From NCBI GenBank assembly GCA_019322805.1, contig JAHWIC010000001.1, positions 132,150 to 196,149 of the forward strand: a stretch of DNA of 64,000 nucleotides. The letters are read 5' to 3'. This stretch comes from Candidatus Woesearchaeota archaeon. GTDB taxonomy: Archaea; Nanobdellota; Nanobdellia; Woesearchaeales; JAHWIC01. Under the pieces are notes generated by a model, which saw only the letters and a program-made list of their open reading frames with translations, had not been told where the DNA came from and did no database searches. This document shows, in pieces, positions 10,514 to 58,154 of the stretch (the stretch's first letter is position 1; every line of letters begins with the position of its first letter). Position numbers and translations under genes: made by a program.

Positions 10514-10531
10514 AAAAGAATAAAATAGAAA

Positions 10532-11533: not shown

Positions 11534-11540
11534 TTTATTA

Positions 11541-11579: not shown

Positions 11580-11627
11580 GCTGCCCCCTATTTTTTATTT
11601 TGTTAATTAAAGAGTATTTATAAGCCT

Positions 11628-12154: not shown

Positions 12155-12194
12155 TTTATCACCAACTTAATATATCACTAGGTTAAATTTCATC

Positions 12195-15371: not shown

Positions 15372-15412
15372 CTTATGTTTACCTCAGTTCTTAACTATGA
15401 ACATTAATGTCG

Positions 15413-15478
15413 GGGTGGGCCAATCACCCAGTTGTGTAGTATTGGGGAGGTCCAAAATGATTTGCGAAGCAAATCATT
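15413..15478 (-). promoter_or_regulatory. Paired hairpins in the 105-bp spacer between the cupin gene stop and the leuC start.
   Basis: AATGATTTGCgaaGCAAATCATT is a perfect 10-bp stem that overlaps the cupin stop codon. GGGTGggccaatCACCC follows. Confidence 0.35.
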
Positions 15479-15740
15479 ATCCTAAATTGTAATGCTTTCT
15501 TACAGCTTTCTTAATATTCCATTTACATTTCATTCCTTGCGGGAAAACAACCCAGTCACCAGCACCAAAATGGAATTTTTCTCCTTCTTCATTAGTTACT
15601 TCAACATCTCCTTCAAGTATCAGACATGTTTCTTTGTCAGAGTATTCCCATGGAAATTCTGAAGCTTCTTTTTCCCAAATCGGCCATGAGCCTGCTTTTG
15701 ACTTTTCTTCATCAGTTGGTTTTCTTATTTCAATTTCCAT
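15477..15740 (-). CDS. Small cupin-domain protein.
   Basis: 87 aa with G(X)5HXH-less short cupin barrel pattern (GDWVVFPQGMKCKWNI). Confidence 0.6.
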   Translation of the reverse strand: MEIEIRKPTDEEKSKAGSWPIWEKEASEFPWEYSDKETCLILEGDVEVTNEEGEKFHFGAGDWVVFPQGMKCKWNIKKAVRKHYNLG

Positions 15741-16230
15741 TTTGAGTCCTTGAAACAGCAGTTACCCCTGTTCTGCTTATCTCTCTCACACCAAAAGGCT
15801 TCATAAGCTCAATAAATGAATCAATCTTATCAGGACTTCCTACAAGTTCTGCAGTAACATCCTTTGTTGTGATGTCTACTATCTTTGTTTTGTATATCTT
15901 TGTATACCTTAGTATCTCTTCCTTTGCTTTTTTGTCAGGTAAAGCTACCTTAAGCAAACACAGCTCGCGAATTATTGATTTGTCTGCAGGCATCTCTATA
16001 ACCTTTATTGTATCAACAAGCTTATTGATCTGCTTCTCCACCTGCTCTAATGTTCTATCATCGCCAATAACAGTGATAACCATCTTTGAAATGCCTTTCT
16101 TTGTTGTTTTTCCAACTGTAATTGTATCTATGTTAAAGCCTCTTCTAGCGAACATACCTGCTATGCGAGTTAAAACACCCGGCTGGTCTTCAACAAGCAT
16201 TGCTATTACGTGTTTTTGTTCTTTTGCCAT
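15730..16230 (-). CDS. ilvN: Acetolactate synthase small (regulatory) subunit.
   Basis: 166 aa, N-terminal ACT domain (HVIAMLVEDQPGVLTRIAGMFARRGFNI). Confidence 0.9.
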   Translation of the reverse strand: MAKEQKHVIAMLVEDQPGVLTRIAGMFARRGFNIDTITVGKTTKKGISKMVITVIGDDRTLEQVEKQINKLVDTIKVIEMPADKSIIRELCLLKVALPDKKAKEEILRYTKIYKTKIVDITTKDVTAELVGSPDKIDSFIELMKPFGVREISRTGVTAVSRTQNGN

Positions 16231-16240
16231 TTTGATTCAC

Positions 16241-17947: not shown

Positions 17948-17955
17948 TTTTACAC

Positions 17956-19524
17956 CTACAAACTCTCCCGTGTTTTCTCTTTTATTTTCTTGAAACTTAA
18001 AGCTTTGTTTATTCCCTTTATTAAAGCTTCTGCTGAAGCCATTATTACATCCTCGTTAACAGCTTCTGCTGAAAAAACATTTCCTTTTTTATCTTCGATC
18101 TTGATTGTTACATCTGCTAATGCGTTTGTTCCTCCTGTGATTGCCTTAAGGTTATATTCCTTTAATGTAACTTCTGGGCCTATTATATTGCCTACAGCAT
18201 GTGAGACAGCGTCAACAGGACCTACGCCTTGACCAGTCCCTGCCCTCTTTTTTCCATTTATTATCAAGGTGACTGTCGCAGTTGGTGTTGTTTTGTTTCC
18301 TGTCTCTACTTTTACTTCATCCAAGACAACATTTTGCTCTTCTTCTGATAAAGTGCCTATAACATCATTAGCTATTGCTATTATATCCTCCCTAACTACT
18401 TCTTTCTGCTTGTCTGCAAGCTCCTTTATCTTAGACATTATCTGATCAATATGCTTTTTTGATAATTCGTAGCCCATATCCTTTAGTACAGCCTCTACAG
18501 CATGTCTGCCTGAGTGTTTGCCTATTACTAGGCCTGTTCCTGTCCAGCCAACATCGCCTGGCTTCATAATCTCATATGTTGCTTTTGCTGAAAGTACACC
18601 ATGCTGATGTATTCCTGCTTCATGGGCAAATGCATTTAAGCCAACAATGGCTTTATTTCTCTGGACTCTTAGGCCAGTTAAGTCTGAAACCATTCTTGAG
18701 GTTTTGTAAATCTCTTTTGTGTTGATTGTTGTTGTAAAGTTCTTGAAAAAGTCCTTTCTTGTCTTTAGGTTCATTACAACTTCTTCTAAGCTACAGTTAC
18801 CTGCACGCTCTCCGATTCCATTTACACAGCACTCTACTTGTGTTGCACCATTCTGTATTCCTGCAAGTGAGTTAGCTACTGCAAGCCCCAAATCATTATG
18901 GCAGTGTACACTTACTGTTATGTTTTTTGCTTCTGGAACCTTTTCAAACAAATACTTGATTCTATAACCAAACTCCTCTGGTTCTGCATAGCCAACTGTG
19001 TCTGGAATGTTAATGGTTGTTGCGCCTGCTTTGATTGCAGCCCTTACAACATCGCACATATAATCAAGGTCAGTCCTAGCAGCATCCTCTGGACTAAATT
19101 CAACATCCTTGCAATATTTGCTAGCGTGTTTGACTCCTTCTGTAACCATCTTGATTATCTCTTTCTTTGATTTTCTTAGTTTCTTTTCTATGTGAATCTG
19201 AGATGTTGCAATAAAGGTATGGATTCTTGGTTTCTTTGCATATCTTACAGCTTTCCAAGCCCTGTCAATATCCTCTTTCATAACCCTGGCTAAGCCGCAG
19301 ATTATGGGTCCTTTTACTTCCCTAGCAATAAGCTTAACAGCCTCAAAATCACCTTCAGAGCTTATAGGAAAACCTGCTTCAATTATATCTACACCAAGCC
19401 TAGCTAGTTGTTTAGCTATGATTAGCTTTTCCTGGATTGTTAAGGAAGCACCAGGTGACTGCTCACCATCTCTAAGTGTAGTATCAAATACCTTGATCTT
19501 TGTTGGTTGTTTTGTTGAAGTCAT
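17956..19524 (-). CDS. leuA: 2-isopropylmalate synthase (or citramalate synthase of the same family).
   Basis: 522 aa, FDTTLRDGEQSPG DRE-TIM barrel N-terminus and C-terminal LeuA-dimer regulatory domain. Confidence 0.9.
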   Translation of the reverse strand: MTSTKQPTKIKVFDTTLRDGEQSPGASLTIQEKLIIAKQLARLGVDIIEAGFPISSEGDFEAVKLIAREVKGPIICGLARVMKEDIDRAWKAVRYAKKPRIHTFIATSQIHIEKKLRKSKKEIIKMVTEGVKHASKYCKDVEFSPEDAARTDLDYMCDVVRAAIKAGATTINIPDTVGYAEPEEFGYRIKYLFEKVPEAKNITVSVHCHNDLGLAVANSLAGIQNGATQVECCVNGIGERAGNCSLEEVVMNLKTRKDFFKNFTTTINTKEIYKTSRMVSDLTGLRVQRNKAIVGLNAFAHEAGIHQHGVLSAKATYEIMKPGDVGWTGTGLVIGKHSGRHAVEAVLKDMGYELSKKHIDQIMSKIKELADKQKEVVREDIIAIANDVIGTLSEEEQNVVLDEVKVETGNKTTPTATVTLIINGKKRAGTGQGVGPVDAVSHAVGNIIGPEVTLKEYNLKAITGGTNALADVTIKIEDKKGNVFSAEAVNEDVIMASAEALIKGINKALSFKKIKEKTRESL

Positions 19525-19712
19525 TTTTTTCTTTCTCCTTGTCTTGTTTTTTTATAGTTTTTGTTTTTTATGGATTTGTAAATAACTTTTAACATTGAAC
19601 ACCTCTAGCCATAAAATAACTAGGGGCTTATAACAGTACCAGAACTAATAGAACTAAGACTAACAAAAGCAAATTCTTACTTCCAGCAATTGTTTGTCCT
19701 TTCATATTGTAT

Positions 19713-21783: not shown

Positions 21784-21921
21784 ATGTACCGCAGATATAT
21801 TGAATCTGAAACGAGCAAATGCCCAAAATGCGGGCATCAGATTAAGTCATGGGAGTATAAATGCCCTAAGTGCGGCACAGAAAGAAAAGAGGAAAAAAAA
21901 GAAATTAGTCTATCAGAATAG
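21784..21921 (+). CDS. Small CPxCG zinc-ribbon protein (45 aa), missing from the ORF track.
   Basis: MYRRYIESETSKCPKCGHQIKSWEYKCPKCGTERKEEKKEISLSE has two CPKCG knuckles. It overlaps the leuS 3' end on the opposite strand. Confidence 0.45.
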   Translation: MYRRYIESETSKCPKCGHQIKSWEYKCPKCGTERKEEKKEISLSE

Positions 21922-24556
21922 CAGGCTTTCCAGGGCTTGCGTTTCTTGCTTTTGCTTCTTTGCTGTCTTCTGATTTAACAATCTCAACATCGCAGTTAAA
22001 TTCTTTCTTAATAAAATCCTTAGCTTCCTCTAATGTTTTAAGCTCTGTTTCCTGGTCAAGAACCACCTGAGGGATCTTGGTGGTGTCTTTAATTAATGAA
22101 GGGACTAATTTTGAAATGTCAGAACCATGCGGCTTTAAGTCCTTTTCAGCCATGCATACTGAGATTAGCGCTTTTGCATCTCTAGTTTTTTCTATTTCTT
22201 TCTTTATGATGCTCATAAACAGATATTTCCAAGCTGGCGATATAATTAAAGTAATCTTTCCTGGTTTATCCACCTTGATTAGCTTTAAAACGCGATTAAT
22301 ATCAGATATTGTAGTATGAATCATATCTTCCGAAGCTTCTGCTTTGTCATCTATTTTTTTCTCGTCATATTCTGGCCAGCTAGCAAGAGAAACGAATGGC
22401 TTATTTCCAAGCCTTTCCCACATCTCCTCGCAAGTATGAGGAACAAAAACACTCATTAGCTTAACTAATCTTTCAAGCACAGACTTATTTACAGTTTCTT
22501 TAGAATAAAGATAATTCGTAAGCTCCATAAGGCTGATTACAGCCATATTGAATTTCATTCCTTCGATATATTCTGTAACCTCTTTTATTGTCTTGTTTAT
22601 CTTGCTTTCCTGTTTTGCATCAACTTCATCAACCAATTTCTTATCAACTAAACTATAAAGTTTATTTAAGAATCTAAAGCTGCCTTCAACTCCTTCATCA
22701 TTCCATTCCATATCCTTGTCAGGACCTGCAACAAACAGCAAAAACAGCCTGCCTGTATCAATTCCATATTTATTGGAGACTTCCTCAGGCAAAACAACAT
22801 TTCCTTTTGATTTTGACATTACTACTCCATTTTTATGCAGCATTCCTTGATTGAATAATGTTTTAGCCGGCTCATCAAAGTCTAATAGACCCAAATCGCG
22901 AAGGAATTTTGTATAGAATCTAAAATAGATAAGATGCATACAAGCATGCTCTTTTCCGCCTATATACATGTCAACAGGCATCCAATACTTTACTTTTTTA
23001 GGGTCAAAGATTTTTTTGTCATTATGTGCATCACAATACCTTAAGAAATACCACGAACTGTTAACAAAGGTGTCCATTGTGTCTGTCTCGCGCTTTGCAT
23101 TTCCGCCACATTTAGGACATTTAACATTAACAAAAGGTTTGTAGCCAACTAATGGATTTTTTGCACTTGTGAATTTTATGTCTTCTGGCAGTTTAACAGG
23201 CAAATCCTTCTCAGGAACAGGCATGATGCCGCACTCATCGCAATAGATTATTGGTATTGGTGTTCCCCAGAAACGCTGCCTTGAAACTAACCAATCTCTC
23301 AGCTTGTATTGTGTGGTAAACCTGCCACACTTACGCTTCTCTAAGAACTTTGTAATTTCTTCGATTGCATCACGGTTATTCATCCCGTCAAACTGCTGAG
23401 AATTGACCATATTGCCGTCTCCCATATATGCACGAGACATCTTTTTTGGGTCTAGCTCATAATCGGGGGGGTTTAATATAACTTTAATAGGTATATTATA
23501 CTTCTTTGCAAACTCAAAATCACGCTGGTCATGTGCAGGCACAGCAATTATAGCTCCAGTACCATACTCATAAAGAACAAAATTAGCAATATAGATAGGG
23601 ACCTTTTCCTTGGTTATAGGATTTATTGCATATCTGCCAATAAACATCCCTTCTTTTTCCTTGTCTTCTGCAGTACGCTCAAACTTATCTTCCATTATAA
23701 CTTTTTTCACAAATTCTGTGACTGCTTTTTCCTGCTCAGTTCCTTTAACTAACTCTGCAACATCAGGATGCTCAGGAGCATAAACAAGGAATGTTATGCC
23801 AAAAAAGGTATCTGCTCTTGTTGTGAAAACAGTTAATTTCTTGTCAGAACCTTCAATCTCAAAATCCATCAAGGTTCCGCGACTTTTTCCTATCCAGTTT
23901 GTCTGCATTATCTTTACATCTTCGCTCCAGTCAAGCTTAGCAGTATCCTTCAATAACTCCTCAGCGTAATCGGTTATTTTAAGGAACCATTGATTAAGCT
24001 CTTTTAATTCAACCAGTGTATCAGTATGTCTCCAGCATTTGCCATCATGTACTTGCTCATTAGCTAAAACGGTGTTACACTTAGGGCACCAATTTGCAAA
24101 AGCCTTTCTTTTGTAAGCAAGACCTTTCTCGTACATCTTAAGAAATATCCATTGATCCCATTTATAGTAATCCGGCTTATGCGTTTCAACCATGCGATCC
24201 CAATCATAACTTAAGCCAAGGCTCTTTTGCTGTTTTATGAAAGTAGCAATAGATTTCTCTGTAAAGATCTTTGGATGGCTCTTTTCCTTAATAGCAGCGT
24301 TCTCTGCAGGCAATCCTAATGAATCATAGCCCATTGGATAAAGAACATTAAAGCCCTGCATACGCTTGAATCTTGCAAACGCGTCACCAATGCAGTAATT
24401 CCTTGCATGGCCCATATGCAATCCCGACCCACTTGGATAAGGATACATCTCTAGAACATAATACTTCTTTTTCTTGGGGTCTTCCTTTACCTTGAATATT
24501 CCCTTGTCTGCCCATTTCTTCTGCCATTTTTGGGCTATTTTATTGAAGTCTGTCAT
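21905..24556 (-). CDS. leuS: Leucyl-tRNA synthetase.
   Basis: 883 aa, HMGHARNY (HIGH-type) and KMSKS (VMSKSKGN) class I motifs, CP1 editing domain. Confidence 0.95.
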   Translation of the reverse strand: MTDFNKIAQKWQKKWADKGIFKVKEDPKKKKYYVLEMYPYPSGSGLHMGHARNYCIGDAFARFKRMQGFNVLYPMGYDSLGLPAENAAIKEKSHPKIFTEKSIATFIKQQKSLGLSYDWDRMVETHKPDYYKWDQWIFLKMYEKGLAYKRKAFANWCPKCNTVLANEQVHDGKCWRHTDTLVELKELNQWFLKITDYAEELLKDTAKLDWSEDVKIMQTNWIGKSRGTLMDFEIEGSDKKLTVFTTRADTFFGITFLVYAPEHPDVAELVKGTEQEKAVTEFVKKVIMEDKFERTAEDKEKEGMFIGRYAINPITKEKVPIYIANFVLYEYGTGAIIAVPAHDQRDFEFAKKYNIPIKVILNPPDYELDPKKMSRAYMGDGNMVNSQQFDGMNNRDAIEEITKFLEKRKCGRFTTQYKLRDWLVSRQRFWGTPIPIIYCDECGIMPVPEKDLPVKLPEDIKFTSAKNPLVGYKPFVNVKCPKCGGNAKRETDTMDTFVNSSWYFLRYCDAHNDKKIFDPKKVKYWMPVDMYIGGKEHACMHLIYFRFYTKFLRDLGLLDFDEPAKTLFNQGMLHKNGVVMSKSKGNVVLPEEVSNKYGIDTGRLFLLFVAGPDKDMEWNDEGVEGSFRFLNKLYSLVDKKLVDEVDAKQESKINKTIKEVTEYIEGMKFNMAVISLMELTNYLYSKETVNKSVLERLVKLMSVFVPHTCEEMWERLGNKPFVSLASWPEYDEKKIDDKAEASEDMIHTTISDINRVLKLIKVDKPGKITLIISPAWKYLFMSIIKKEIEKTRDAKALISVCMAEKDLKPHGSDISKLVPSLIKDTTKIPQVVLDQETELKTLEEAKDFIKKEFNCDVEIVKSEDSKEAKARNASPGKPAILID

Positions 24557-24609
24557 AAGAGTTAGAAAATAGCAGGTTTATTTAAAGTTTTAGAAAAAGA
24601 AAAAATAAT

Positions 24610-26060: not shown

Positions 26061-26135
26061 CCGACGCAGCTGAAAAGTCAGCTGGCACCTTCGTGGGTTT
26101 CCTCGCTTCGCTCGTCAAGCCCACTTAACTATGAT

Positions 26136-26281
26136 GCGGGAGACGGGTCTTACGAGCCATAATTCCTCCGGAATTAACGGCATTCGAACCCGCGCAGCCA
26201 CTAAGGCACAAGGCCCTCAACCTTGCTCATTTGACCATTACAGCCTTAAGCAAATGCTCAAAGGTCTCTGACACCCCCGCA
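26136..26281 (-). tRNA. tRNA-Leu(GAG) (class II) interrupted by two non-canonical introns. Intron 1 is in the D-loop (about 26239-26263, 25 nt). Intron 2 lies between the T-loop and the T-stem 3' strand (about 26148-26182, 34 nt).
   Basis: Minus strand: acceptor GCGGGGG/CTCCCGC + A73; D-stem TCA/TGA; D-loop GAGACC[intron]TGGTCAAA; anticodon arm CAAGG-TTGAGGG-CCTTG; variable arm GCC-TTAGT-GGC; T-arm GCGGG-TTCGAAT-[intron]-CCCGT. The mature length is 87 nt. Confidence 0.7.
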
Positions 26282-26292: not shown

Positions 26293-27078
26293 TTATTTTG
26301 CAATATTTGTGGCTAACTCGTCAAGCTGCTCCTTGAAAACCTTTGCAGCTTCTAAGACCATTTTCTTAGGGTCAAGCTGACCCCATGACTCTATATAAAA
26401 AACAAATTCTGTATTATCACAGTTGAGTTTTATGCCTTCATCTGCATCAGAGCATGCTTCGCATAGATGGCAGTTAAGCAATTTATCCTTGTTTATTACA
26501 AGCTTTCCTTCTTTTAGCTCAAATATGTTTACTGGGCAAGCTTCTACAACAGCCTCAGGATTTTTCACATGCCCAATCTCAATTGATGGCCTATATTTGT
26601 AATAAACCAAGCCTGGGCTCCACTTCATATGTTCCTTGCCTTGACCTAGCACTGCTGTTGCCTCTATTTCTATATCCTGTCCCTTAAGCAGCTTCACTAT
26701 AGGAAGCTTAGGATGAACTGGCTTTATTGCTGAATCCTTTGACTTTATGTCTGAAGCGTAAACCACAGCAGGACCTTTTGCCTTCAAGGTCATCTTAAGC
26801 TGGCATCTTGCACAGCCTTCACCCTTGCACTTGCATTTTTCTGGTAGATTGTATGACTTAATGTCTGTTGTTAGAGGTATCAAGCCAAGCCTATGCGCTA
26901 CCATCTCGTCGTATAGGATTGAGTTGTTTTTTCTTAACTCAACATTCTCAATCGCCATTACAGGCACTTCTTCTGATGTCAACCTACGTAAAGCATTCGC
27001 AAAGGCTGGTGTTGATCCCTTTAAAATAAAAGATAATTTTCCAGCTTCTTTGTCCTTTTCGAGCATTCGTATTTCCAT
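26293..27078 (-). CDS. rpoD: DNA-directed RNA polymerase subunit D (Rpb3 homolog) with an Fe-S (ferredoxin-like) insert.
   Basis: 261 aa, cysteine clusters CKCKGEGCARC and CHLCEACS, conserved position before S11-S4-S13. Confidence 0.9.
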   Translation of the reverse strand: MEIRMLEKDKEAGKLSFILKGSTPAFANALRRLTSEEVPVMAIENVELRKNNSILYDEMVAHRLGLIPLTTDIKSYNLPEKCKCKGEGCARCQLKMTLKAKGPAVVYASDIKSKDSAIKPVHPKLPIVKLLKGQDIEIEATAVLGQGKEHMKWSPGLVYYKYRPSIEIGHVKNPEAVVEACPVNIFELKEGKLVINKDKLLNCHLCEACSDADEGIKLNCDNTEFVFYIESWGQLDPKKMVLEAAKVFKEQLDELATNIAK

Positions 27079-27479
27079 TATACCCTTCTACCCCTCCTTG
27101 CATCTTTTTTTCTGCAACCATCATGAGGTACAGGAGTGACATCCTCTATTATGCCGATGCGCAAGCCCATTCTTGATAAAGCCCTCACAGCAGCTTGAGC
27201 GCCAGGTCCTGGGTTATTTGGGCCGTTATGGCCGCCAGGAGCCCTTATCTTAACATGAATTGCATTGATCCCTTTTTCAAGAGCTGTTTCTGCAGCCCTT
27301 TTTGCAGCAGTCATTGCAGCTGTTGGTGATGATTCCATTCTATCTGATTTTACAACCATTCCTCCAGAAGCCATTGCAAGGGTTTCTGTTCCAGTGATAT
27401 CAGTAATATGGATTATTGTGTTATTGTAAGAGGCATATATGTGTGCAATACCCCATCTAGCTCCTTCATACCTTGGCAT
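27078..27479 (-). CDS. rps11: 30S ribosomal protein S11 (uS11).
   Basis: 133 aa, [18 protein letters not shown]... uS11. Confidence 0.9.
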
Positions 27480-31749: not shown

Positions 31750-32142
31750 AAAAGTTAGTAGGGTTAGAATAAGCCACCTTTTGTAGGAACCTTAGTAACC
31801 GCAACTTGTGCGATTGATGCTCCTTCTTAGCATTTAACTAAGCGTCTTTGCGTGCCATAAATGCTCTTCGAGCATTTAACGGTGCTTGACTTGCACAGAC
31901 AAGGACTATCCGTTTCACCCGTTCTTATTAAAACGTCTGCCTGTTAGCTTGTTCTTGTCACCAAAAACTTCAAAGGCATCATCCTCTTAATAAGAGGTCT
32001 CGTTTCTGTGATGTTGCCGCCCATTTCTGGACCTTACTTCCGTAAGTTGCCACAATAAGTGGGTGGACTTTCCTCAGTCAAACAACATGGTTGCCTGCGG
32101 ATTTAACCGCTTGACCGTTAGCTAAGTACTAACCCTACTGCT
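31750..32142 (-). ncRNA. rnpB: RNase P RNA (archaeal type).
   Basis: Minus strand: CR-I GAGGAAAGUCCACCC, CR-II-like GGGUGAAACGGAUAGUCC, CR-V ACAAAAGGUGGCUUAU (P4 pairing AAGUCCACC/GGUGGCUU). The P1 helix pairs GUAGGGUUAG (32127-32139) with CUAACCCUAC (31757-31767). An oligo-U stretch follows the 3' end. Confidence 0.75.
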
Positions 32143-32181: not shown

Positions 32182-33339
32182 TTAAGACGAGAACACAATA
32201 ACCTTACTTTCCTGCTTTCCAAGCCATATAGGCTTTTCATCAACAACCTTGAACTTATGCTTTTCAGCTGCTTTCTTTAGTTCTTCAGGAGATTTTGCAA
32301 TCACAGCTATCTTTCCTTTCTTTTTCAGAACAAACTCTGCCTGATAAAAGAATTCATTGTACAGCTTTTCAATATCCTTAGGGTTTGTGTGCTTTGATAT
32401 TGCTGGCGGGGTTGTGATGATTTTATCAATGCTGTTCTTATCCACCTTAGTGTCGAGCCATTCTATTTCCATTCTTGAGAAATTGATTATTTTGTCAACA
32501 GCAGCTATCTTTGCGTTCTTTTTTGTTGCATCAACATGTCTAAACTGAGCATCAAATGCGTTTATCATTGGTTTCTTGACTAGTTTCTTTTCTTTGTCAA
32601 TTTTATCAAAGAAATCATCAAAATTGATATCATTAAAACATTTTAATTTTAAAAATGAAAATCTGTCCTTTCTGAAGTGATTTACTGAGATATTTGAGGA
32701 ATACAAAGCAGCTTCTATCGGAATCGTTCCTGAGCCTGTGAAAGGGTCCAATAAAATTTCATCTTTCTTGTAATCTGCAATTCTTAACATGGCATAAGCA
32801 ACTGTTCCTTTTAATGCAGTCGGGTGTGAAAAAACCTTATATTCCCGTTTGCTTAAGTCAATTCCTGCAAAATCAATGCCAAAAAAACAATCATTGTCAG
32901 AAATAAAAACATAAAATATAATATCAGGGTTATCGAGATTTACCTTTGGCTCGTATTTGTTTTTCTTCTTAACATTATCAATTATAAACCCGCCAACTTC
33001 TGCGTTTATTTCCTCGCTTGAGATAGAATCGTTATCAACCTTAGAGCAGCTGACCCTGAATGTTTTATCCTTATCCAGCCAATCATCAAGGTTTATTTTA
33101 TCGACTATAATTTTTATCAATTTAAAAAATTCATCATTATCTTTAAATTTAAAAGAGTCAAATGATGAAAGAACTCGCGTGATTGATTGTGATTTATAGC
33201 AGAGCGTACACAACTCAATTAATTCAGCATCAAAAACAAGGCAAGAATTCTTTATTTCAGACTTTTTATTTAATATCTCGTTTATTTCTTTAGAAGTTAT
33301 ATCTTCAATGCCTTTTGAGGTTATTGCTAGGGCTTTCAT
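32182..33339 (-). CDS. THUMP-domain class I SAM-dependent RNA methyltransferase (tRNA m2G-type, Trm14/TrmN-like).
   Basis: 385 aa, N-terminal THUMP domain, motif I LLDPFTGSGTIPIEAA, motif IV-like TTPP. Confidence 0.7.
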   Translation of the reverse strand: MKALAITSKGIEDITSKEINEILNKKSEIKNSCLVFDAELIELCTLCYKSQSITRVLSSFDSFKFKDNDEFFKLIKIIVDKINLDDWLDKDKTFRVSCSKVDNDSISSEEINAEVGGFIIDNVKKKNKYEPKVNLDNPDIIFYVFISDNDCFFGIDFAGIDLSKREYKVFSHPTALKGTVAYAMLRIADYKKDEILLDPFTGSGTIPIEAALYSSNISVNHFRKDRFSFLKLKCFNDINFDDFFDKIDKEKKLVKKPMINAFDAQFRHVDATKKNAKIAAVDKIINFSRMEIEWLDTKVDKNSIDKIITTPPAISKHTNPKDIEKLYNEFFYQAEFVLKKKGKIAVIAKSPEELKKAAEKHKFKVVDEKPIWLGKQESKVIVFSS

Positions 33340-40037: not shown

Positions 40038-40760
40038 GTGGGTCTGTTTGGTAAAAAGAAAAAGGTTGTTTCTGGATTGGATATCCCGCCTGCTCCGCCT
40101 CCAGTTAAGATTAGTGAAGAGGTTTCTGCTCCTCCAGAAGCTATTGAGCTTCCAGAGTTCCCTAGTTTACCAGAATTTCCTCCTCCGCCTGGAAAGGGGT
40201 TGCCTACTTTTGAGGAAGGGTTAAAGAGGGGAGGGAAGGCTCCTCCTGTAAAAGAGGCTATTGAAAAAGAGATTCCACCACCAATGGAAGAGATTCCTCC
40301 TCCACCTACAGAAGAAATGGAGATGCCCCCACCGCCTATGAAAGCGCCGCTGCCAGTAAAAGCCAAAGGAGATATTCCAGAAGCTCCACCAGCCCCAGGG
40401 ATTCCGCCGCCGCCTATGAAAGCGCCTGAAGAAGAACTTCCAGAGGCTCCTCCAAGACCTGAAGAAGCAGCACCTGAGATGCCGTCATTTGAGGCTGTAG
40501 AAGAGGAGATTGGCGAGGAAGAAAAGGTTGGTATGAGGGTCACAGAAGGTCCTATCTTTATAAGAGCTGATAATTACAGATATGTCCTGGATGAGTTAAG
40601 TGTTGCAAGAAACATTGTAAAAGAGTCTGGTGAATTATTTGCAGGGATTGAGAACATAAGCTCGAGCAGTGAACAGGCATATGAAAATTGGCGTTTGTGT
40701 TTAGAGGATGTAGAAAGAAAGTTGCTGTATGTTGATAAATCATTATTTGGAGGAGGGTGA
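40038..40760 (+). CDS. Hypothetical protein with a poly-proline N-terminal half (PPPP/PPAPPP repeats) and a conserved about 65-aa C-terminal domain shared with the next two genes.
   Basis: N-terminal MGLFGKKKK then Pro-rich repeats. C-terminal PIFIRADNYRYVLDEL...ENWRLCLEDVERKLLYVDKSLF. The antisense 40031-40543 ORF is a shadow. Confidence 0.6.
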   Translation: MGLFGKKKKVVSGLDIPPAPPPVKISEEVSAPPEAIELPEFPSLPEFPPPPGKGLPTFEEGLKRGGKAPPVKEAIEKEIPPPMEEIPPPPTEEMEMPPPPMKAPLPVKAKGDIPEAPPAPGIPPPPMKAPEEELPEAPPRPEEAAPEMPSFEAVEEEIGEEEKVGMRVTEGPIFIRADNYRYVLDELSVARNIVKESGELFAGIENISSSSEQAYENWRLCLEDVERKLLYVDKSLFGGG

Positions 40761-41444: not shown

Positions 41445-41634
41445 TGCACTTTTAGCATGCACAAATAGTTGTGCACTTGGTTGAGTTTTTTATTATTTAA
41501 TTTTAAAAATTTAAAACAATTAAAAATAAATAAGGTTGAACTTCGTAGTTTAGACAAACATTGTTTGGCTTCTTCTGTTTCTGCACCTAATGGTTAATTT
41601 TGTTGATGGTGGCTATACATACAATGTGTGTATT
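41445..41634 (+). repeat. Intergenic repeat family, copy B (GTGCAC palindromes / GCACAAatagTTGTGC hairpin, T-run, AACAATTAAAAATAAATAAGG box, CAAACattGTTTG hairpin, ACATACAATGTGTGTATT motif).
   Basis: About 80% identical over about 170 nt to copy C (55950-56123). It lies between the tandem-domain genes and the tRNA-Leu(CAA) promoter. Confidence 0.65.
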
Positions 41635-41686
41635 AAGAAGTTTGATAGTAAACTATAAATAAAACAATATTTTTCGCTCTCTCTAT

Positions 41687-41853
41687 GCGGGGATGCCGGA
41701 GACCTAAAGGCATATGCCCTAAGGCCGGATTGGCCAAACGGGATAGACTCAAGGCATTTGAGTGTTGAGTGCTCGTCAGAGTGCGATGAAAGAATCATTT
41801 GTAAGTCATCTATTGGCTTAGTGCCTACCGGGGTTCGAATCCTCGTCCCCGCA
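41687..41853 (+). tRNA. tRNA-Leu(CAA) (class II) with two introns: a D-loop intron (about 41705-41730, 26 nt) and a canonical 37/38 anticodon-loop intron (41754-41807, 54 nt).
   Basis: Acceptor GCGGGGA/TCCCCGC + A73; D-arm CCG-GAGACC[intron]TGGCCAAA-CGG; anticodon arm ATAGA-CUCAAG[intron]A-TCTAT (mature loop CUCAAGA); variable arm GGC-TTAGT-GCC; T-arm CGGGG-TTCGAAT-CCTCG. A TATA box AACTATAAATAAAAC lies about 25 nt upstream. Confidence 0.75.
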
Positions 41854-41869
41854 TTTAATTTATAGAATT

Positions 41870-44542
41870 TTAACGGCTAACATCAAATAATTTTTCTGTC
41901 ATCCATCTAAAGCCTAATGTCTGTTTTGTGTAAGGTATTTTAACTGACCAGTACAGGTGCCCTACCAGCCTCTCAGCCAATGACCTATGCCCTGGCCTCT
42001 TATGATATTCTTCTATTTCTTCTGCAGGGCCTATCTTGTGTTTGTGTTTGAGTTCTTTTTTATGTGCTCTCACAGCTAACTGATAAGCGTGTAGATGTTT
42101 TGCCCAGAACCTTTTTTGTTCTTTCGCATCTGCAGGTTGATTTGGCTGCTCAGGTTTGTTCATCGCTTTTCTAGCAAAACTCATTGCGTAGTCATGAACC
42201 CAGTAAAAGTGTTCAGGTGGTGGACGTTCATCCCCAAAGCCCCGCCAGAACTCGACATAAACTATCGGATAAACATGTTCAAGGACTTCCTGTAAGGTAG
42301 CCGCGCCTGCCCGTCTTGCTTGTTCTCCAATTAGTGCTTCATGCCTGTATAATTTTTTATAATCATGGATTAATTGTTTAATGCCTTTTGGACCCCGGTA
42401 TTTTGTTTCCAGTGATGAGGCAACTCCTGGCATTAAAACGCTTGCTTTTTCAACGGCAATATGTAATGCTGACCTTAGCTCGTTTTGTGTGGGCTCTCTT
42501 CCACCAGCTTGTGTCTGAAGCATATTCTCAAACTCGTTCAAGACATCATCAAATAATAATGCATGAGCTAGTTCATCTTCTCTTAATCCCTGAAGGATGT
42601 TCCATGATTCTGTTGCTCGTTCTCTTGTTATATCTCCATCAAGATAACGCCTGCAGGTTTCTTGTGCAGCATAGTCACGGTCTGCTCTGATAGGATTTCT
42701 TGGTTGTCTAATTTTTGCAGCAAGCCCTTCAGGATCAGGCAGCGCGTCTCCTAGAAATGCATAATACCTGTACCTCCCATCAAATCCCTCTGAGTTTCCG
42801 CTGGATAGATATATCTCCTGTAACCCCTGCCTTGTATGGTCTATTGACTTCTTGAACACTGCTTCTGTGATAAAATCTCTTATCTTCCAATAGTTAGCTA
42901 CGGCTTTGATATGATCATCAGCAGTTTGGATAAATGAATTTGCCGCAGTAGCTGGTTCTCTTCCTGTTATAGACGCGTCATTGCTGCTTTCCCCAAGAAA
43001 TTGAAGCCCCCTACATAAAGGTGAGAAAACATCCCATATTTCTTCTGCTGGATGGGCCTGCATTCTGTATGCCTTTCCTATTTCATCAATGCCTTGTGCC
43101 TCCAAATAATCAGCTGCACCAGGCCCAAAAAGAGTAGTTATCTCACTTACTGCCTTTTTACGTACTCCTTCAAGCTGTTCAATAGTTGGCTCTGGAACAG
43201 GATCATCAAGCTGGGCTTCTAAATTACTTATTTGAGCTGATATACCGGCTAGTTCCGGGTCTGTTGGATCTGGAACAGCATCAAGTTTGGCTTGTAAAGT
43301 GGCTATTTGGGCTGGTAAAATGGCTAGTTCTGCTTCTCTTGCTTTACGAATCTCTGCGGTAACATTATCAGGTATGTTAGATTTTATGTATTCCTGATAT
43401 AGCTGCTCCCCTTGTTTTGCTTGCTCAAGCCTTTGCTTTAAAAACTGCATTTGTGATTCCAGCTCTAACCCAAGCAACAATGAATGATAGATTCTTTCCT
43501 TTACTTTTTGTTTTTGTTCATCACTGCCATTGTATTCTGTTTTAAGCCATGTTGTACATATATTATCCCTAATGTTTCTCATGGCTTTTCTAAATCTTTC
43601 ACGGATTTTTTCAGGATTCTGATTTGATCCAAGTACGCTTTCCCTCAGATTAGTAATTTCCGAAACTTCTGCTTCCAAAAGCTGCGGATTCAAGTGTCTA
43701 ACGCCCTTATACCAGGCTTTCAGAGCTTGAAGTGGGGTATAAATTACTCTAGAGCGCTCCAGTAGCCACTTATGTATTCCTTCATCAATGCCTGCTTTAC
43801 GCCTGGCTTCATATGTTTCCCTGTGAGGTAAGAGGACATGAGCAAGACCTAATGCTTTCTCATAGTACGGAAGGAAATCCTGCATTGTAGGGTCGGCTAT
43901 GTCAGGGTTCTTTACTTCGCTACCTTCCTGTTCCCTACGCCTTTGTTCAGTTTTCTTATTATATAGGCCACGCAATTCCTTAACAAGTATCCTTCTTAGC
44001 AGTTCATCAAAATCTGCTGCACTATCCTGATTGCGTTCTTCTGGAGGAATATATTTTGCTGATATCTCATCTTCTCCTAGTTTTTCAAATTCTTTGCGAA
44101 CAAGCAAATGAAGCTTATCCTCTTCTCCTTTTAATACAGCCACTTGCATATCCAGAAACCTTCGAACATGCATATCGACAACAGGCACTACCCTTCCCAT
44201 AAACATTTCATATAAAACCTCTCCAAGCGGCTTGCCTGATTGTTCAAGAGCAGTTTTAACCCACTCAAAGGTATGGGGTATTGCTTTTATCTGCCAGTTA
44301 TGTTTAGGATGGTAGCTATCGCTTAGAATAGTGGCAGCCACAAAACCAAGCTGTCCAGCTACTCTTGAAGCATTGGCTATTGCATCATCATCATCCTGCC
44401 CATATGCCTTAAAACCTTTAAATGATTTAATGTGTTTTCGCGCCTCTTCAGGGTCTACTCCTGCGTCATTAAATTCTCTTAGAAAATCCTCTAACCTATC
44501 ATATGTAATTTCAGCTTCGAATGACATTTTTCTATAATGCAA
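41870..44542 (-). CDS. Large hypothetical protein (890 aa) of atypical Arg/Glu/Ala/Leu-rich composition, immediately 3' of tRNA-Leu(CAA).
   Basis: Long uninterrupted ORF with no recognisable catalytic motifs and coiled-coil-like central region (LEAQLDDP..., LQAKLDAVPDP). Confidence 0.5.
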   Translation of the reverse strand: MHYRKMSFEAEITYDRLEDFLREFNDAGVDPEEARKHIKSFKGFKAYGQDDDDAIANASRVAGQLGFVAATILSDSYHPKHNWQIKAIPHTFEWVKTALEQSGKPLGEVLYEMFMGRVVPVVDMHVRRFLDMQVAVLKGEEDKLHLLVRKEFEKLGEDEISAKYIPPEERNQDSAADFDELLRRILVKELRGLYNKKTEQRRREQEGSEVKNPDIADPTMQDFLPYYEKALGLAHVLLPHRETYEARRKAGIDEGIHKWLLERSRVIYTPLQALKAWYKGVRHLNPQLLEAEVSEITNLRESVLGSNQNPEKIRERFRKAMRNIRDNICTTWLKTEYNGSDEQKQKVKERIYHSLLLGLELESQMQFLKQRLEQAKQGEQLYQEYIKSNIPDNVTAEIRKAREAELAILPAQIATLQAKLDAVPDPTDPELAGISAQISNLEAQLDDPVPEPTIEQLEGVRKKAVSEITTLFGPGAADYLEAQGIDEIGKAYRMQAHPAEEIWDVFSPLCRGLQFLGESSNDASITGREPATAANSFIQTADDHIKAVANYWKIRDFITEAVFKKSIDHTRQGLQEIYLSSGNSEGFDGRYRYYAFLGDALPDPEGLAAKIRQPRNPIRADRDYAAQETCRRYLDGDITRERATESWNILQGLREDELAHALLFDDVLNEFENMLQTQAGGREPTQNELRSALHIAVEKASVLMPGVASSLETKYRGPKGIKQLIHDYKKLYRHEALIGEQARRAGAATLQEVLEHVYPIVYVEFWRGFGDERPPPEHFYWVHDYAMSFARKAMNKPEQPNQPADAKEQKRFWAKHLHAYQLAVRAHKKELKHKHKIGPAEEIEEYHKRPGHRSLAERLVGHLYWSVKIPYTKQTLGFRWMTEKLFDVSR

Positions 44543-44637: not shown

Positions 44638-45984
44638 GTGGGTAAAATGATAGAAATACGCGCAGTTGGAGGCTATAATGAGGTTGGCAAGAATATGACT
44701 GCCATTAAGATAGATGATGAGGTTGTTATCATAGATATGGGCCTTCATATGGAGAGTTACATTAAGTACACTGAAGAAGATGAAGATATACGCAATATAA
44801 GCGCTGCTGAGCTGTTAAAAGTAGGAGCAATACCTGATGATTCTGTAATCAAGGACTGGAAAGGTTCTGTTAAAGCAATTATCCCAACGCATGCGCATCT
44901 TGACCATGTTGGTGCACTTATCTTTCTTGCTAATAAGTATAAGGCTCCGATAGTCTGCACGCCTTTTACAAGAGAGGTTATAAGAAGCATAAGCAAGGAT
45001 GAAGGAATAAAACTAAAGAACAATATCAAAACACTTAATGTGAACTCCAGCTATAATATTTCTAAAAACATTAAGATTGAATTCATAAATATGACCCATT
45101 CTACACCTCAGACAGTTATGGTTGCTTTGCATACAAGGCATGGAATTGTCCTGTACGCAAATGATTTCAAATTTGACAATCATCCGATTATTGGGAAAAA
45201 GCCAAATTACAAGAGGTTAAAGGAGTTAGGCAAAGAGGGTGTTTTGTGTGCAATAGTTGACTGCACAAGAGCAAAAAGATCAGTTAAAACCCCAAGCGAG
45301 ACTGTTGCAAAAGAAATGCTCAGGGATGTTATGCTTGGAACAGATTCAACAAACAAAGCAGTTATTATCACTACATTCTCTTCACATCTTGCAAGGCTAA
45401 AGTCAATTGTAGAGTTTGGCAAGAAGATGAACAGAAAGATTGTCTTCTTAGGGAGATCATTGGCAAAATATACTAAAGCAGGAGAAAATATTGGCTTAGT
45501 GAAGTTCTCCAAGGAAGTTGAAATCGTGAAGTTTGGAAAGCAGATAAAGAAGAAGCTAAAAAAGATAGAAACTGATGGACGCGAGAAATATCTTATGGTT
45601 GTTACAGGCCACCAGGGAGAGCCTAAAGCAACCCTGTCAAAGATCGCAGATAAAGTTTTGCCGTTTAAGCTTTACTCAGAAGACCATATAATCTTTTCAT
45701 GTACGGTTATTCCATCTCCTACGAATATTGAGAACAGAAAAATTCTTGAAGATAAATTAAAAAGGTATGGTGTGAGGATTTTTAGGGATATACATGTAAG
45801 CGGGCATGCTGCAAGAGAAGATTTGAGAGACTTGATAAACCTGGTTGAGCCAAAGAACCTTATTCCTGCTCACGGTGATTACTCAATGAAAGACGCATTT
45901 GTTGAGCTGGCAATGGATAAAGGATATAAAGTCGGAAAGAATATCCATATACTCAAAGATGGTGGTAAATTAAAGCTTGCTTAG
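44638..45984 (+). CDS. rnj: Archaeal ribonuclease J (beta-CASP MBL-fold RNase).
   Basis: 448 aa, MBL motifs IIPTHAHLDHVGAL, beta-CASP region and C-terminal HVSGHAAREDL. Confidence 0.85.
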   Translation: MGKMIEIRAVGGYNEVGKNMTAIKIDDEVVIIDMGLHMESYIKYTEEDEDIRNISAAELLKVGAIPDDSVIKDWKGSVKAIIPTHAHLDHVGALIFLANKYKAPIVCTPFTREVIRSISKDEGIKLKNNIKTLNVNSSYNISKNIKIEFINMTHSTPQTVMVALHTRHGIVLYANDFKFDNHPIIGKKPNYKRLKELGKEGVLCAIVDCTRAKRSVKTPSETVAKEMLRDVMLGTDSTNKAVIITTFSSHLARLKSIVEFGKKMNRKIVFLGRSLAKYTKAGENIGLVKFSKEVEIVKFGKQIKKKLKKIETDGREKYLMVVTGHQGEPKATLSKIADKVLPFKLYSEDHIIFSCTVIPSPTNIENRKILEDKLKRYGVRIFRDIHVSGHAAREDLRDLINLVEPKNLIPAHGDYSMKDAFVELAMDKGYKVGKNIHILKDGGKLKLA

Positions 45985-46035: not shown

Positions 46036-46779
46036 ATGAAACTCGCTTTAGCTGAACCAAGGTATCTAAAGGAAAGTGTTTCTATAATTTCTGATCTAGT
46101 TAATGAAGCTCGCTTCAAGATAAACAAGGACGCTGTTGAGCTTGTTGCAATGGATCCTGCTAATGTTGCTATGGTTGATTTTAAATTGCTGTCAAGCTGT
46201 TTTACTGAATATGATGTAAAGGATGAGGTCAAGATAGCAATAAATCTGAGCAATTTAAAGCAGATATTGCGAAGAGCAAATCCAAGTGATATGTTAAGCC
46301 TTGAATTAAATGAAGGTAAATTAAAGATACAGCTTAAGGGAGCTTCTGTAAGAACATTTAATCTTCCGATTATTGAGCTTGAGGAAAAAGAGCAAAAGAT
46401 ACCTGAATTAAAATTCCAGGCTAAGGTAACAACTCCTGCAAGTGTTTTGAATGAAGCTGTTGAGGATGCAGATATTGTAGCTGAGGCTGTTTCTTTCCAG
46501 GCAGAGCCAAAGAAGTTTACTGTTCATGCTGAAGGAGACCTAAGCCAGGCTAAGATAGAGATAGGAGAAAGTGATAATGTAAAGATAAATGTTGAAGGGA
46601 ATGAGAAGATAAAATCAAAGTATAGTGTCGAGTATCTGAAGAAGATGATGAGTGCATCAAAGCTTGCTGATAATGTAACAATGCAGTTTAATAAAGACTA
46701 TCCATTAAAGCTTGAGTATGCTGCTGTGGATAAGGTGATGCTCAGCTTTATTCTTGCTCCAAGGGTTGAGAATGAGTAA
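46036..46779 (+). CDS. pcn: DNA polymerase sliding clamp PCNA.
   Basis: 247 aa, two-domain PCNA fold pattern (ISDLVNEARFKINKDAVELVAMDPANVAMVDFKL...), interdomain connector loop. Confidence 0.85.
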   Translation: MKLALAEPRYLKESVSIISDLVNEARFKINKDAVELVAMDPANVAMVDFKLLSSCFTEYDVKDEVKIAINLSNLKQILRRANPSDMLSLELNEGKLKIQLKGASVRTFNLPIIELEEKEQKIPELKFQAKVTTPASVLNEAVEDADIVAEAVSFQAEPKKFTVHAEGDLSQAKIEIGESDNVKINVEGNEKIKSKYSVEYLKKMMSASKLADNVTMQFNKDYPLKLEYAAVDKVMLSFILAPRVENE

Positions 46780-56594: not shown

Positions 56595-58154
56595 ATGATA
56601 GGCTTATCTACAACCTTAAGGTATTACAAAAGAGAGGACATACAGAACGAAATAGTCAGAAATGCAAAAGACAGAGAAGTCGCAGTTAAGTTTGGAGATA
56701 AAGGCTTTGGAAAAAGGCCAGACATCTTAAATTATCCTGCTGATATCCTAGAGCTTACAAAACAAGGTGCTACCTCCTTTCATGCTTCTGAAGAGCTTTG
56801 GAGTAATCCACTAAGGCTTGACCCGAATATGAGGAAAAAGGATATTGAAGAATTAAGAATTGGCTGGGATTTGGTTATTGATATTGACTGCCCTATTTGG
56901 GATATATCAAAGATAACTGCGTGGTTGATTATAAAAGCGTTAAAAGCTCAGGGTATTACATCAATTTCAGTAAAATTTTCTGGGAATAAAGGTTTCCATA
57001 TAGGAGTTCCATTTGAGGTTTTTCCTAAAAGGGTAGGAAATGAAGAAATAAAGAGCAGGTTTCCAGAGGCTACAAGAAAAATTGCTATGTATTTGTTAGA
57101 TTTCGTTGGTAGGGAATATACTAAAGTTGAGTCTGGTAAGATAATATTTGGAAATAGGTTTAAGGTCGCTGTAGATAAATTAAGCAAACTTGTAGGAAAA
57201 AATTTTGATGAATTGACCTATCTGATATGTAAAAATTGTAAGAAAAAAGTTGAAAGAAAAGAGGAAAAACATGAAGAAACTGTTGTGAGCAGTGATGATA
57301 TAGACTTTATGAATGAAGTATCATACGAAGGAAAACTCAAAAAAGGTTCTTTCAAAAAGAAATCATGTGGTTGTAACAAGCCTGATTACGAAAGTAAATT
57401 TAATCCTTTATCTGTAATAGACGTAGATACAATTTTAATTTCTTCGAGACATCTTTACAGAATGCCATATTCATTGCATGAAAAGTCAAAGTTGGTATCT
57501 ACACCATTCAATCCTGAAAAGGTTATGGACTTCAAAAAAGAGTTCGCCGAGCCAGATAATGTAAAGATATCCAGATTTAGGTTTCTTGACAAAGAAAATG
57601 TAAAGGCTGGTGAGGGGCTGCAATTACTTGATAGGGCTCTTACCTTTGGTTTAGAAGAAGAAAAAGAAGAAGTGCAGATAAAGAAAGAATATGAAATGCC
57701 AAAATCGGCTTTACCGATAGATTATTTCCCGCCATGTATTAAAAAAATCCTGAATGGCCTGGAAGATGGAAGAAAAAGATCACTATTCACCTTAGTAAAT
57801 TTCCTAACGTGCGTTGGCTGGGACCATGACAAGATTGAAAAGCTCTTAAGAGAGTGGAACAAGAAAAACCAAGAGCCATTAAGAGAGGTGTTATTGGTGG
57901 GCCAATTAAGATACCACAAGCAGCAGAAAAAGAGAATCTTGCCTCCAAACTGCGCAAATAAGATGTATTACCAGGACATAGGTTGCTGTATACCTGATAA
58001 TCTATGCCAAAAGATAAAAAATCCTGTTAATTATGCCCGAAGAAAGGTTGGGGTAAGAGAAAAAGCAGAAAAACCAAAGAGACGGCAACTAACAGAAGAA
58101 CAGAAAGAAATGCGTAGAAAGTACAGAGAAAAGCTAAAAAAAGAGGATAAATAG
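56595..58154 (+). CDS. priS: DNA primase: PriS catalytic domain fused to a C-terminal PriL-CTD-like four-cysteine domain.
   Basis: 519 aa. Archaeo-eukaryotic primase motifs LVIDIDCP (DxD) and SGNKGFHIGVPF, plus a C-terminal 170 aa with C...C...CC...C (CVGW...CANK...GCCIPDNLC). Confidence 0.65.
   Translation: MIGLSTTLRYYKREDIQNEIVRNAKDREVAVKFGDKGFGKRPDILNYPADILELTKQGATSFHASEELWSNPLRLDPNMRKKDIEELRIGWDLVIDIDCPIWDISKITAWLIIKALKAQGITSISVKFSGNKGFHIGVPFEVFPKRVGNEEIKSRFPEATRKIAMYLLDFVGREYTKVESGKIIFGNRFKVAVDKLSKLVGKNFDELTYLICKNCKKKVERKEEKHEETVVSSDDIDFMNEVSYEGKLKKGSFKKKSCGCNKPDYESKFNPLSVIDVDTILISSRHLYRMPYSLHEKSKLVSTPFNPEKVMDFKKEFAEPDNVKISRFRFLDKENVKAGEGLQLLDRALTFGLEEEKEEVQIKKEYEMPKSALPIDYFPPCIKKILNGLEDGRKRSLFTLVNFLTCVGWDHDKIEKLLREWNKKNQEPLREVLLVGQLRYHKQQKKRILPPNCANKMYYQDIGCCIPDNLCQKIKNPVNYARRKVGVREKAEKPKRRQLTEEQKEMRRKYREKLKKEDK

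Follow-up and report, generated by a model that had tools for sequence, protein, structure and literature searches.

A leucine tRNA gene with predicted bulge-helix-bulge introns in the D-loop and anticodon loop on a DPANN archaeal contig

Two interrupted leucine tRNA genes

Positions 41687-41853 on the forward strand of the 64-kb stretch of contig JAHWIC010000001.1 analysed here (the window) hold a leucine tRNA gene, tRNA-Leu(CAA), which is split by two short bulge-helix-bulge (BHB) introns and which standard tRNA finders miss. The gene comprises 167 nucleotides (nt) from G1 to the discriminator base A73, does not encode the CCA end and corresponds to a mature product of 84 nt. Its first exon (41687-41701, + strand) carries tRNA nt 1-15, that is, the 5' strand of the acceptor stem, U8, G9, the D-stem strand CCGG, A14 and G15; its extent follows from BHB geometry, and its sequence is identical in the syntenic orthologue L067, where the D-loop intron is absent. 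Exon 2 (41731-41753, +; nt 16-37) holds the remainder of the D-loop (UGGCCAAA), the 3' strand of the D-stem, the 5' strand of the anticodon stem and CUCAAG, and exon 3 (41808-41853, +; nt 38-73) holds the 3' strand of the anticodon stem, a variable arm of 15 nt (UGGCUUAGUGCCUAC), the T-arm, the 3' strand of the acceptor stem and A73. The predicted introns are a 29-nt D-loop intron at position 15/16 (41702-41730, +; ACCUAAAGGCAUAUGCCCUAAGGCCGGAU), placed by a register test, covariation and the orthologue L067, and a canonical 54-nt intron at position 37/38 (41754-41807, +), placed by BHB annotation and by comparison with the loci L041 and L135.

Read by eye, the acceptor stem is GCGGGGA/TCCCCGC, followed by A73 at 41853, the T-arm is CGGGG-TTCGAAT-CCTCG and the anticodon arm is ATAGA-CTCAAGA-TCTAT, the two halves of which lie 54 nt apart in the DNA. 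The 7-nt loop CUCAAGA with U33 and a purine at 37, the Leu anticodon, the long variable arm and A73 are those of a class II tRNA-Leu. The gene is flanked by a T-rich tail on one side and, on the other, by a TATA-like box (TATAAATA, 41654-41661, +) that ends 26 nt upstream of G1 and was read from the sequence as a putative archaeal promoter, a call that leans on the known layout of such promoters.

ARAGORN, run with and without its intron mode, found no tRNA in the raw 64-kb window, and the Rfam tRNA model gave no match in the window at the gathering score, nor at E≤10 over 41600-41950. When 41702-41730 and 41754-41807 are both removed, ARAGORN calls the 84-nt product tRNA-Leu(caa), and when only 41702-41730 is removed it calls tRNA-Leu(caa) with an anticodon-loop intron. 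On a profile hidden Markov model built from 88 tRNA-Leu sequences, the 84-nt product scores 65.6 bits against 25.4 for the unspliced sequence, and every spliced junction variant scores between 60 and 73 bits against 25. Excision restores a canonical cloverleaf of isotype Leu, as expected for BHB introns, with the predicted spliced junctions GCCGGAG-UGGCCAAAC and CUCAAG-AUCUAU. An earlier note on this DNA, made from the sequence alone, had described a class II tRNA-Leu(CAA) with a D-loop intron and a 54-nt canonical intron, and this general description is borne out by the ARAGORN calls and the profile scores of the intron-removed forms. A group I intron is excluded at this gene, its introns of 29 and 54 nt being compared with a self-splicing ribozyme core (P1-P9) of more than 200 nt; the Rfam group I model likewise had no match, either in the window at the gathering score or near the gene at E≤10. 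ARAGORN and the profile together leave the exact D-loop junction unsettled, and independent evidence was therefore needed.

In a BHB, the first two anticodon bases lie within the 4-bp central helix (Yoshihisa, 2014; PMC4090602), which places the 5' cut after the second nt of the 3-nt bulge and the 3' cut symmetrically. The D-loop intron has this definition of a BHB, with a 4-bp central helix, two 3-nt bulges and cuts after the second nt of each bulge. Nucleotides 10-13 of the D-stem (CCGG, 41696-41699) pair with CCGG at 41725-41728 in four of four Watson-Crick pairs, the bulges are 41700-41702 (A14-G15|A) and 41729-41731 (A-U|U), and an inner helix h' of CCU (41703-41705) with AGG (41722-41724) closes the 5' bulge. 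The strict hBHBh' form is absent, as no outer helix h joins nt 8-9 to the nucleotides after the 3' cut (hA=0). Since h' is present and h is absent, the motif is a relaxed BHB of the HBh' type, for which a broad-specificity endonuclease is needed. The earlier note had postulated an endonuclease able to cut relaxed BHB motifs, in agreement with the outer helix missing at the 3' site and with the findings of Kaneta et al. (2018; PMC5829648). An unconstrained BHB scan returned 84-98 loose candidates per gene; because loose BHB-like geometry is this common by chance, comparative data were needed. Minimum-free-energy folding of the precursor, which had been suggested as a way of locating the BHBs, did not reveal them, alternative pairings being dominant.

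On this geometry the D-loop intron is predicted to span 41702-41730, and not 41705-41730 as first described. The 3' end at 41730 was correct in that description and the 5' boundary was 3 nt off: the ACC that follows GAG is intronic, its A being the third bulge nt and its CC the start of the inner helix. The product of removing 41705-41730, presented in the earlier note as a textbook tRNA, is 87 nt long and is not called by ARAGORN; its D-loop is one nt longer than the program accepts, and at lowered thresholds it is misfolded. All junctions that leave fewer nt between G15 and G18 are called tRNA-Leu with the expected anticodon.

A second leucine tRNA gene, tRNA-Leu(GAG), occupies 146 nt of the minus strand (26135-26280; exons 26280-26266, 26237-26183 and 26148-26135) and is likewise missed by ARAGORN and Rfam in the raw DNA. 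It is interrupted by a 28-nt D-loop intron at position 15/16 (26265-26238, -) and a 34-nt T-loop intron at position 59/60 (26182-26149, -). The flanks GAGACC and TGGYCAAA, pointed out earlier for both window genes, are indeed found here in the same GAGACC...TGGTCAAA arrangement, and the view that the two D-loop introns occupy the same site is upheld, with both at 15/16. The D-loop BHB has the same layout, UCAG pairing with CUGU, and A12:U replaces G12:C as a compensatory change; a junction equivalent to GAGACC|UGG again gives an 87-nt product that ARAGORN does not call. In the BHB of the T-loop intron the T-stem is the outer helix, UUCG/CGUA is the central helix with one U.U mismatch and the bulges are AA|U and AG|A, so placed that excision at 59/60 leaves the T-loop UUCGAAA. 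A 60/61 junction was dropped in favour of 59/60 because the BHB geometry fits at the latter and the exons of the window gene and its orthologue L145 become identical; 59/60 is also a recognised major insertion site (PMC3239211). The predicted spliced junctions are GUCAGAG-UGGUCAAAU and GUUCGAA-ACCCGU. The two window D-loop introns form a family of their own, with 19 of 29 positions identical.

The bounds 41754-41807 and the position 37/38 given earlier for the canonical intron of tRNA-Leu(CAA) are correct. Its outer helix is the 5-bp anticodon stem, its bulges are AG|G and UC|A, and its central helix joins CUCA (C32-A35, 41748-41751) to UAAG (41802-41805) with a C34.A mismatch; it passes as a BHB despite having three of four central pairs. 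The Woesearchaeota gene L041 has this CUCA/UAAG helix too, helices with three of four pairs are common among relatives, whose BHBs at this intron are of like quality, and no other cut pair yields a 7-nt anticodon loop, as judged by inspection and the BHB scan. The complementarity between CUCAA and UUGAG at the start of the intron, noticed earlier, is real (ACUCAA with UUGAGU), UUGAG occurring twice (41758-41762 and 41765-41769), but the BHB partner of the anticodon is the 3'-proximal UAAG. The tandem repeat UUGAGUG x2 at 41758-41771, complementary to ACUCAA and kept in the orthologue L135, may stabilise an alternative fold of the precursor. The anticodon intron proposed by ARAGORN itself (43 nt, with a weak A-U/G-U stem and an oversized variable arm) was rejected because, with the 54-nt intron, the stem has five Watson-Crick pairs and the variable arm resembles those of relatives. 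Inspection of 41754-41807 for a C/D-box small RNA as in tRNA-Trp introns (C box RUGAUGA, D box CUGA) found only an imperfect GCGAUGA and no CUGA. A local Rfam scan gave a single CD-box match, DdR6, with 17.1 bits (gathering score 90, E = 2.2), and this match is not in the intron but downstream of the tRNA gene, at 41855-41949.

Comparative evidence for the intron junctions

An RNase J-like gene (44638-45984) and PCNA (46036-46779) lie near tRNA-Leu(CAA) in the window, and tblastn found them beside this tRNA gene in the fetched loci L067, L183, L135, L161 and L033; in L067, a Nanoarchaeota metagenome-assembled genome (MAG), RNase J and PCNA have 73% and 70% amino-acid identity to those of the window. 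Similarly, tRNA-Leu(GAG) has the gene for RNA polymerase subunit D (26296-27087) as its neighbour in the window, in L145 (91% identity) and in L032, L046, L102 and others. These conserved neighbourhoods make true orthologues available and place the window in DPANN, where, judged by synteny, it belongs to the Woesearchaeota/Nanoarchaeota (sensu GTDB). The window is archaeal by Rfam, with an RNase P RNA (31759-32137, -) and a signal recognition particle RNA (4822-5094, +), and has a G+C content of ~37%. Woesearchaeota-like tRNA-Leu genes, together with genes syntenic with the window, were also seen on MAG contigs labelled 'Methanosarcinales' (L002, L048, L102 and others), which are probably mis-binned.

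In L067 the tRNA-Leu(CAA) orthologue lacks a D-loop intron. Its first 31 nt are those of the window exons joined as GAG|UGG, and cutting the window gene at any other pair of sites does not reproduce this sequence. Compared with the orthologue in L135, the exons agree at 78/84 positions, the D-loop intron at 16/33 and the canonical intron at 50/55 (91%), and the six exon differences all lie in the T-stem, on both strands, with pairing kept. For tRNA-Leu(GAG) and L145 the corresponding values are 84/84 for the exons, 21/39 (54%) for the D-loop intron and 23/34 (68%) for the T-loop intron. Exons that are conserved while the introns drift and yet preserve their BHBs point to functional genes and not to pseudogenes.

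The orthologue group holds further introns. In L067, L183, L161 and L048 the tRNA-Leu(CAA) gene has an extra ~30-nt intron in the anticodon stem (~30/31-31/32) beside the canonical one, and L048 also has a T-loop intron, which gives up to three introns per gene and four sites across the group. The D-loop introns of L145, L183, L178, L159, L123, L135 and L136 share a family of the form ACWTGC...GCTCGC...GCYGCAA across genomes and isoacceptors, and this sharing suggests within-genome homogenisation or intron mobility.

Species-representative genomes were scanned with the pattern GCGGGGRTGNCNGAG-N(0-30)-TGGYCAAANG, which was used for D-loop spacing only. In the 121 tRNA-Leu matches listed, GAG and TGGYCAAA are separated by 0 nt (47), 1 nt (6), 2 nt (67) or 17 nt (1), and the spacing of 3 nt implied by the 87-nt product occurs in none; among these matches the 0-nt spacing occurs mostly in Woesearchaeota, Pacearchaeota and Nanoarchaeota. 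Of the intronless tRNA-Leu(CAA) genes among the matches listed, the closest, from Woesearchaeota (L045), is 84 nt long with the D-arm GCCGGAGTGGTCAAACGGG, and the 84-nt product derived from the BHBs is 86% identical to it. The 17-nt spacing belongs to the only insertion-bearing gene among the matches listed, which lies in an Aenigmatarchaeota MAG (L087, 1697-1738, +) and has a 17-nt D-loop insertion with a duplicated GGCCAA and a long anticodon-loop intron.

A scan of metagenomes that required 20-50 nt at the D-loop site yielded 65 loci, 52 of them distinct, and the metagenome contig L168 carries a D-loop intron identical to that of the window tRNA-Leu(CAA) gene; a contig identical to that of the window is present in SRR14699988. 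Together with the syntenic orthologues, these 65 loci agree with the earlier suggestion of an intron position conserved across the lineage. Position 15/16 is a recurrent intron site in DPANN tRNA-Leu isoacceptors across many genomes, and the combinations 15/16 + 59/60 and 15/16 + 37/38 + 59/60 recur in the metagenomic genes.

The register of the D-loop intron was assessed in the 52 distinct metagenomic sequences and the two window genes (54 in total). A perfect 4-bp central helix together with an inner helix was obtained in 20/54 with the 5' cut after G15, as compared with 0-3/54 for other 5' cuts (nt 11-21) and a mean of 0.6 (maximum 3) for shuffled insertions, and the products predicted by the G15 register have the D-loop spacing of natural genes again, 0 or 2 nt. 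In a fixed-register alignment of 25 genes, compared with 500 shuffles, 85.5% of the central-helix cells were paired, where shuffles gave 57.8% and slid registers 24-49%; the percentage paired is inflated by the pre-selection of the genes and by a 3' register that was set in part by best pairing. The covariation score was 0.713 against 0.190 in shuffles and was reached by 0/500 of them; 61 cells changed on both sides, and the pair nt12:intron(-5) occurs as GC, CG, AU and GU. Covariation and register specificity thus supply the compensatory changes expected of a BHB intron, for a 3' register that was partly chosen by pairing.

Besides this inflation, several points weigh against a gene with two BHB introns at the junctions given here. 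The tRNA-Leu profile cannot separate the junction variants and slightly favours the 86-nt GAGAC|UGG form, because most of its training genes have a longer D-loop. The canonical intron has a mismatch in its central helix and an inner helix of only 2 bp. The nearest intronless relatives of tRNA-Leu(GAG) read GAG-UC-UGG, and a D-loop longer by 2 nt is possible in that gene. No EndA or RtcB match was found among the scanned open reading frames (ORFs) of at least 200 amino acids (aa) in the 64-kb window, and both the splicing and its exact junctions are what we infer from the DNA. With these points taken into account, we still hold it highly probable that 41687-41853 is a functional DPANN tRNA-Leu(CAA) gene giving a 167-nt precursor with two protein-spliced BHB introns.

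A different route, which we consider very unlikely, would be removal of the D-loop insertion by a mechanism other than EndA, or a cut at GAGAC|UGG leading to an 86-nt tRNA with the longer D-loop that is common in other archaea. ARAGORN calls this variant tRNA-Leu and the mixed profile scores it slightly higher, and in the GAG gene the cut has a weaker BHB-like register with three of four central pairs and a wobble-rich inner helix. In the CAA gene, however, only one of the four central-helix positions pairs at that cut when examined by hand and the cut is not among the best 25 scan candidates; its register stays at background level across the 54 sequences, and the CAA orthologues would gain variable exon nt where L067 has the short form. 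Less probable still is a decaying pseudogene that has accumulated insertions and is not processed to a working tRNA. The silence of the standard finders and the imperfect BHB of the canonical intron would suit such decay, whereas the (near-)perfect conservation of exons between genomes beside diverging introns, the compensatory nature of the T-stem changes, insertions that keep a covarying BHB tracking each gene's own D-stem, the return of the same architecture in dozens of genes at syntenic positions and the TATA-like box and T-rich tail around the gene all speak against it.

The least probable alternative, again very unlikely, is the 26-nt D-loop intron at 41705-41730, cut at GAGACC|UGG to give an 87-nt tRNA with four nt between G15 and G18. 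GAGACC and TGGYCAAA do flank the insertion in both window genes and the product still reaches 62.6 bits on the tRNA-Leu profile, but ARAGORN rejects it for both genes, its 3-nt spacing is absent from the 121 matches listed, and there is no BHB at that cut, the register test peaking at G15. The three nt concerned vary among orthologues (ACC, AUU, ACA, AAC), the D-loops of which are otherwise invariant, and they are absent from L067, which lacks the D-loop intron.

Neighbouring genes

Beside tRNA-Leu(CAA) lies an ORF of 890 aa (41870-44542, -), an ORFan for which no Pfam or PHROG match was found and an exact-sequence look-up came back empty; among the fetched loci it matches only L001, a copy of the same contig. 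In L067, L183 and L161 only ~0.7-0.9 kb separate the tRNA from RNase J, as taken from match coordinates, and the ORF appears to be missing there; the slot is thus variable and the ORF an insertion specific to this lineage. The earlier note was right to place this ORF next to the tRNA; its description as compositionally foreign is weakly supported, with a GC content of 0.415 against 0.380 +/- 0.026 for the other ORFs of the window (1.3 standard deviations higher) and a GC at third codon positions of 0.309, which is normal for the window. No direct repeats of at least 10 nt flank the ORF, and nothing points to integration at tRNA-Leu(CAA). A proline-rich, low-complexity ORF (40038-40760, +) with the highest GC of the window (0.46) lies a short way upstream of the tRNA gene.

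A leucyl-tRNA synthetase gene (21908-24577, -), recognised by the LeuRS editing domain PF13603, is separated from tRNA-Leu(GAG) by 1.5 kb, and several of the fetched tRNA-Leu loci (e.g., L102, L037, L047) carry homologues of this synthetase. Upstream lies an ilv/leu biosynthesis cluster (6946-19551) with ilvD, KARI, leuB, leuC, ilvB and leuA, which is unusual for a DPANN genome. The RNase P RNA directly adjoins a THUMP/UPF0020 methyltransferase (32185-33339, -), which is probably a Trm11/Trm14-like tRNA methyltransferase. Further along, a primase ORF (56595-58151, +) is a PriS-PriL fusion; a similar fusion is known in Nanoarchaeum.

Proposed processing and comparison with known systems

That the gene is transcribed, cut by EndA and ligated, and in which order its two introns are removed, is inferred here from sequence features. 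Transcription would probably proceed from the TATA-like box at 41654-41661 and give the 167-nt precursor. In this precursor the 5' strand of the D-stem, C10-G13, would pair with the CCGG at the 3' end of the intron, a mimic of its mature partner, and not with that partner itself; bound in this way, it would keep the D-stem from forming. The CCU/AGG helix, with a small hairpin as its cap, would close the 5' bulge of the first intron, the 3' bulge being without an outer helix, while the second intron would be presented as anticodon stem, bulge, CUCA:UAAG with one mismatch, and bulge. EndA would cut after the second nt of each bulge, an RtcB-type ligase would join the exons, and the D-stem would then fold as in the mature cloverleaf. 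In vitro, broad-specificity archaeal EndA cleaves D-loop BHB introns (PMC3241643; PMC5829648), and DPANN EndAs with an L3 loop accompany heavy tRNA gene disruption (PMC5829648); the relaxed D-loop motif would imply an EndA of broad specificity, in agreement with both studies.

A more speculative and rather unlikely reading is that, in DPANN, position 15/16 of tRNA-Leu may act as a hot spot to which introns are targeted and may not be the site of one anciently inherited intron. It is suggested by orthologues with identical exons that carry strongly diverged introns at exactly 15/16, by the one intron family that the two Leu isoacceptors of the window share where other genomes have another (ACWUGC...GCUCGC...GCYGCAA), and by the end of the D-loop intron, which in every case imitates the D-stem of its host. 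If true, a hot spot would fit active intron gain, replacement or gene conversion (for instance reverse splicing, or homing through D-stem mimicry). As part of the same speculation, the D-loop intron could also gate modification of the D-loop or folding of the tRNA core, since the predicted cut lies directly 3' of G15, the archaeosine site.

Archaeal multiple-intron tRNA genes with non-canonical BHB introns were reportedly described by Sugahara and colleagues between 2006 and 2009. Such genes are found in Thermoproteales, Nanoarchaeum, Korarchaeum and ARMAN-1/2 (PMC4090602; PMC4033280). The window genes share with them short BHB introns of the 3-4-3 type, more than one intron per gene, the combination of canonical 37/38 and non-canonical sites, similar introns in different tRNA genes of one genome and the 59/60 site (PMC3239211). 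They differ in their host, a DPANN archaeon of the Woesearchaeota/Nanoarchaeota type, and in the recurrence of 15/16 specifically in tRNA-Leu isoacceptors. In a limited look-up, 15/16 was not found named in the literature, where 20/21, 20b/21, 22/23 and others are listed, and an earlier listing is possible.

With the D-loop intron of M. kandleri the tRNA-Leu(CAA) intron shares the relaxed HBh' motif, an accompanying canonical intron and a tRNA core that is blocked until removal. Cleavage by a broad-specificity EndA has been demonstrated in vitro for introns of the M. kandleri type, whereas the window genes are known from their sequence; moreover, the position is 15/16 and not 20b/21, and the central helix in the window uses the 5' strand of the D-stem. 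The nuclear tRNA genes of Cyanidioschyzon merolae also combine D-loop, 37/38 and T-loop introns in one gene, and BHB-dependent processing of these ectopic introns was verified by reverse transcription PCR (PMC3728597). Unlike the window genes, these belong to a eukaryote, the endonuclease is composed differently, and there is no relationship by descent.

Kaneta et al. (2018; PMC5829648) reported that tRNA genes are markedly disrupted in Pacearchaeota, Woesearchaeota and other DPANN, in association with an alpha4 EndA bearing the L3 loop, and attributed incomplete DPANN tRNA sets to undetected disrupted genes. That study gives genome-level statistics, whereas the two genes of the window are individual examples missed by standard tools, and the 15/16 + 37/38 and 15/16 + 59/60 architectures of tRNA-Leu and their covariation, worked out here, go beyond it. 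Hidden tRNA-Leu genes of this kind make DPANN genomes look short of tRNAs, the problem raised in that work. They also offer a clean, covariation-backed case of a D-loop intron presented to the splicing endonuclease by mimicking one strand of the D-stem, and as a set they would be useful substrates on which to test how specific DPANN endonucleases are. They do not alter what is understood of tRNA splicing today, and their value lies with tRNA specialists and with annotation.

Multiple and non-canonical BHB introns, D-loop introns, the 59/60 site, the triple combination of D-loop, 37/38 and T-loop introns and the disruption of DPANN tRNA genes are thus already documented. To these the present analysis adds two hidden tRNA-Leu genes with corrected junctions, the recurrence of 15/16 in DPANN tRNA-Leu, a D-stem-mimic geometry supported by covariation and a fast turnover of introns at a fixed site, the sites 15/16, 37/38 and 59/60 recurring in many uncultured archaea as the sequences of the introns change quickly.

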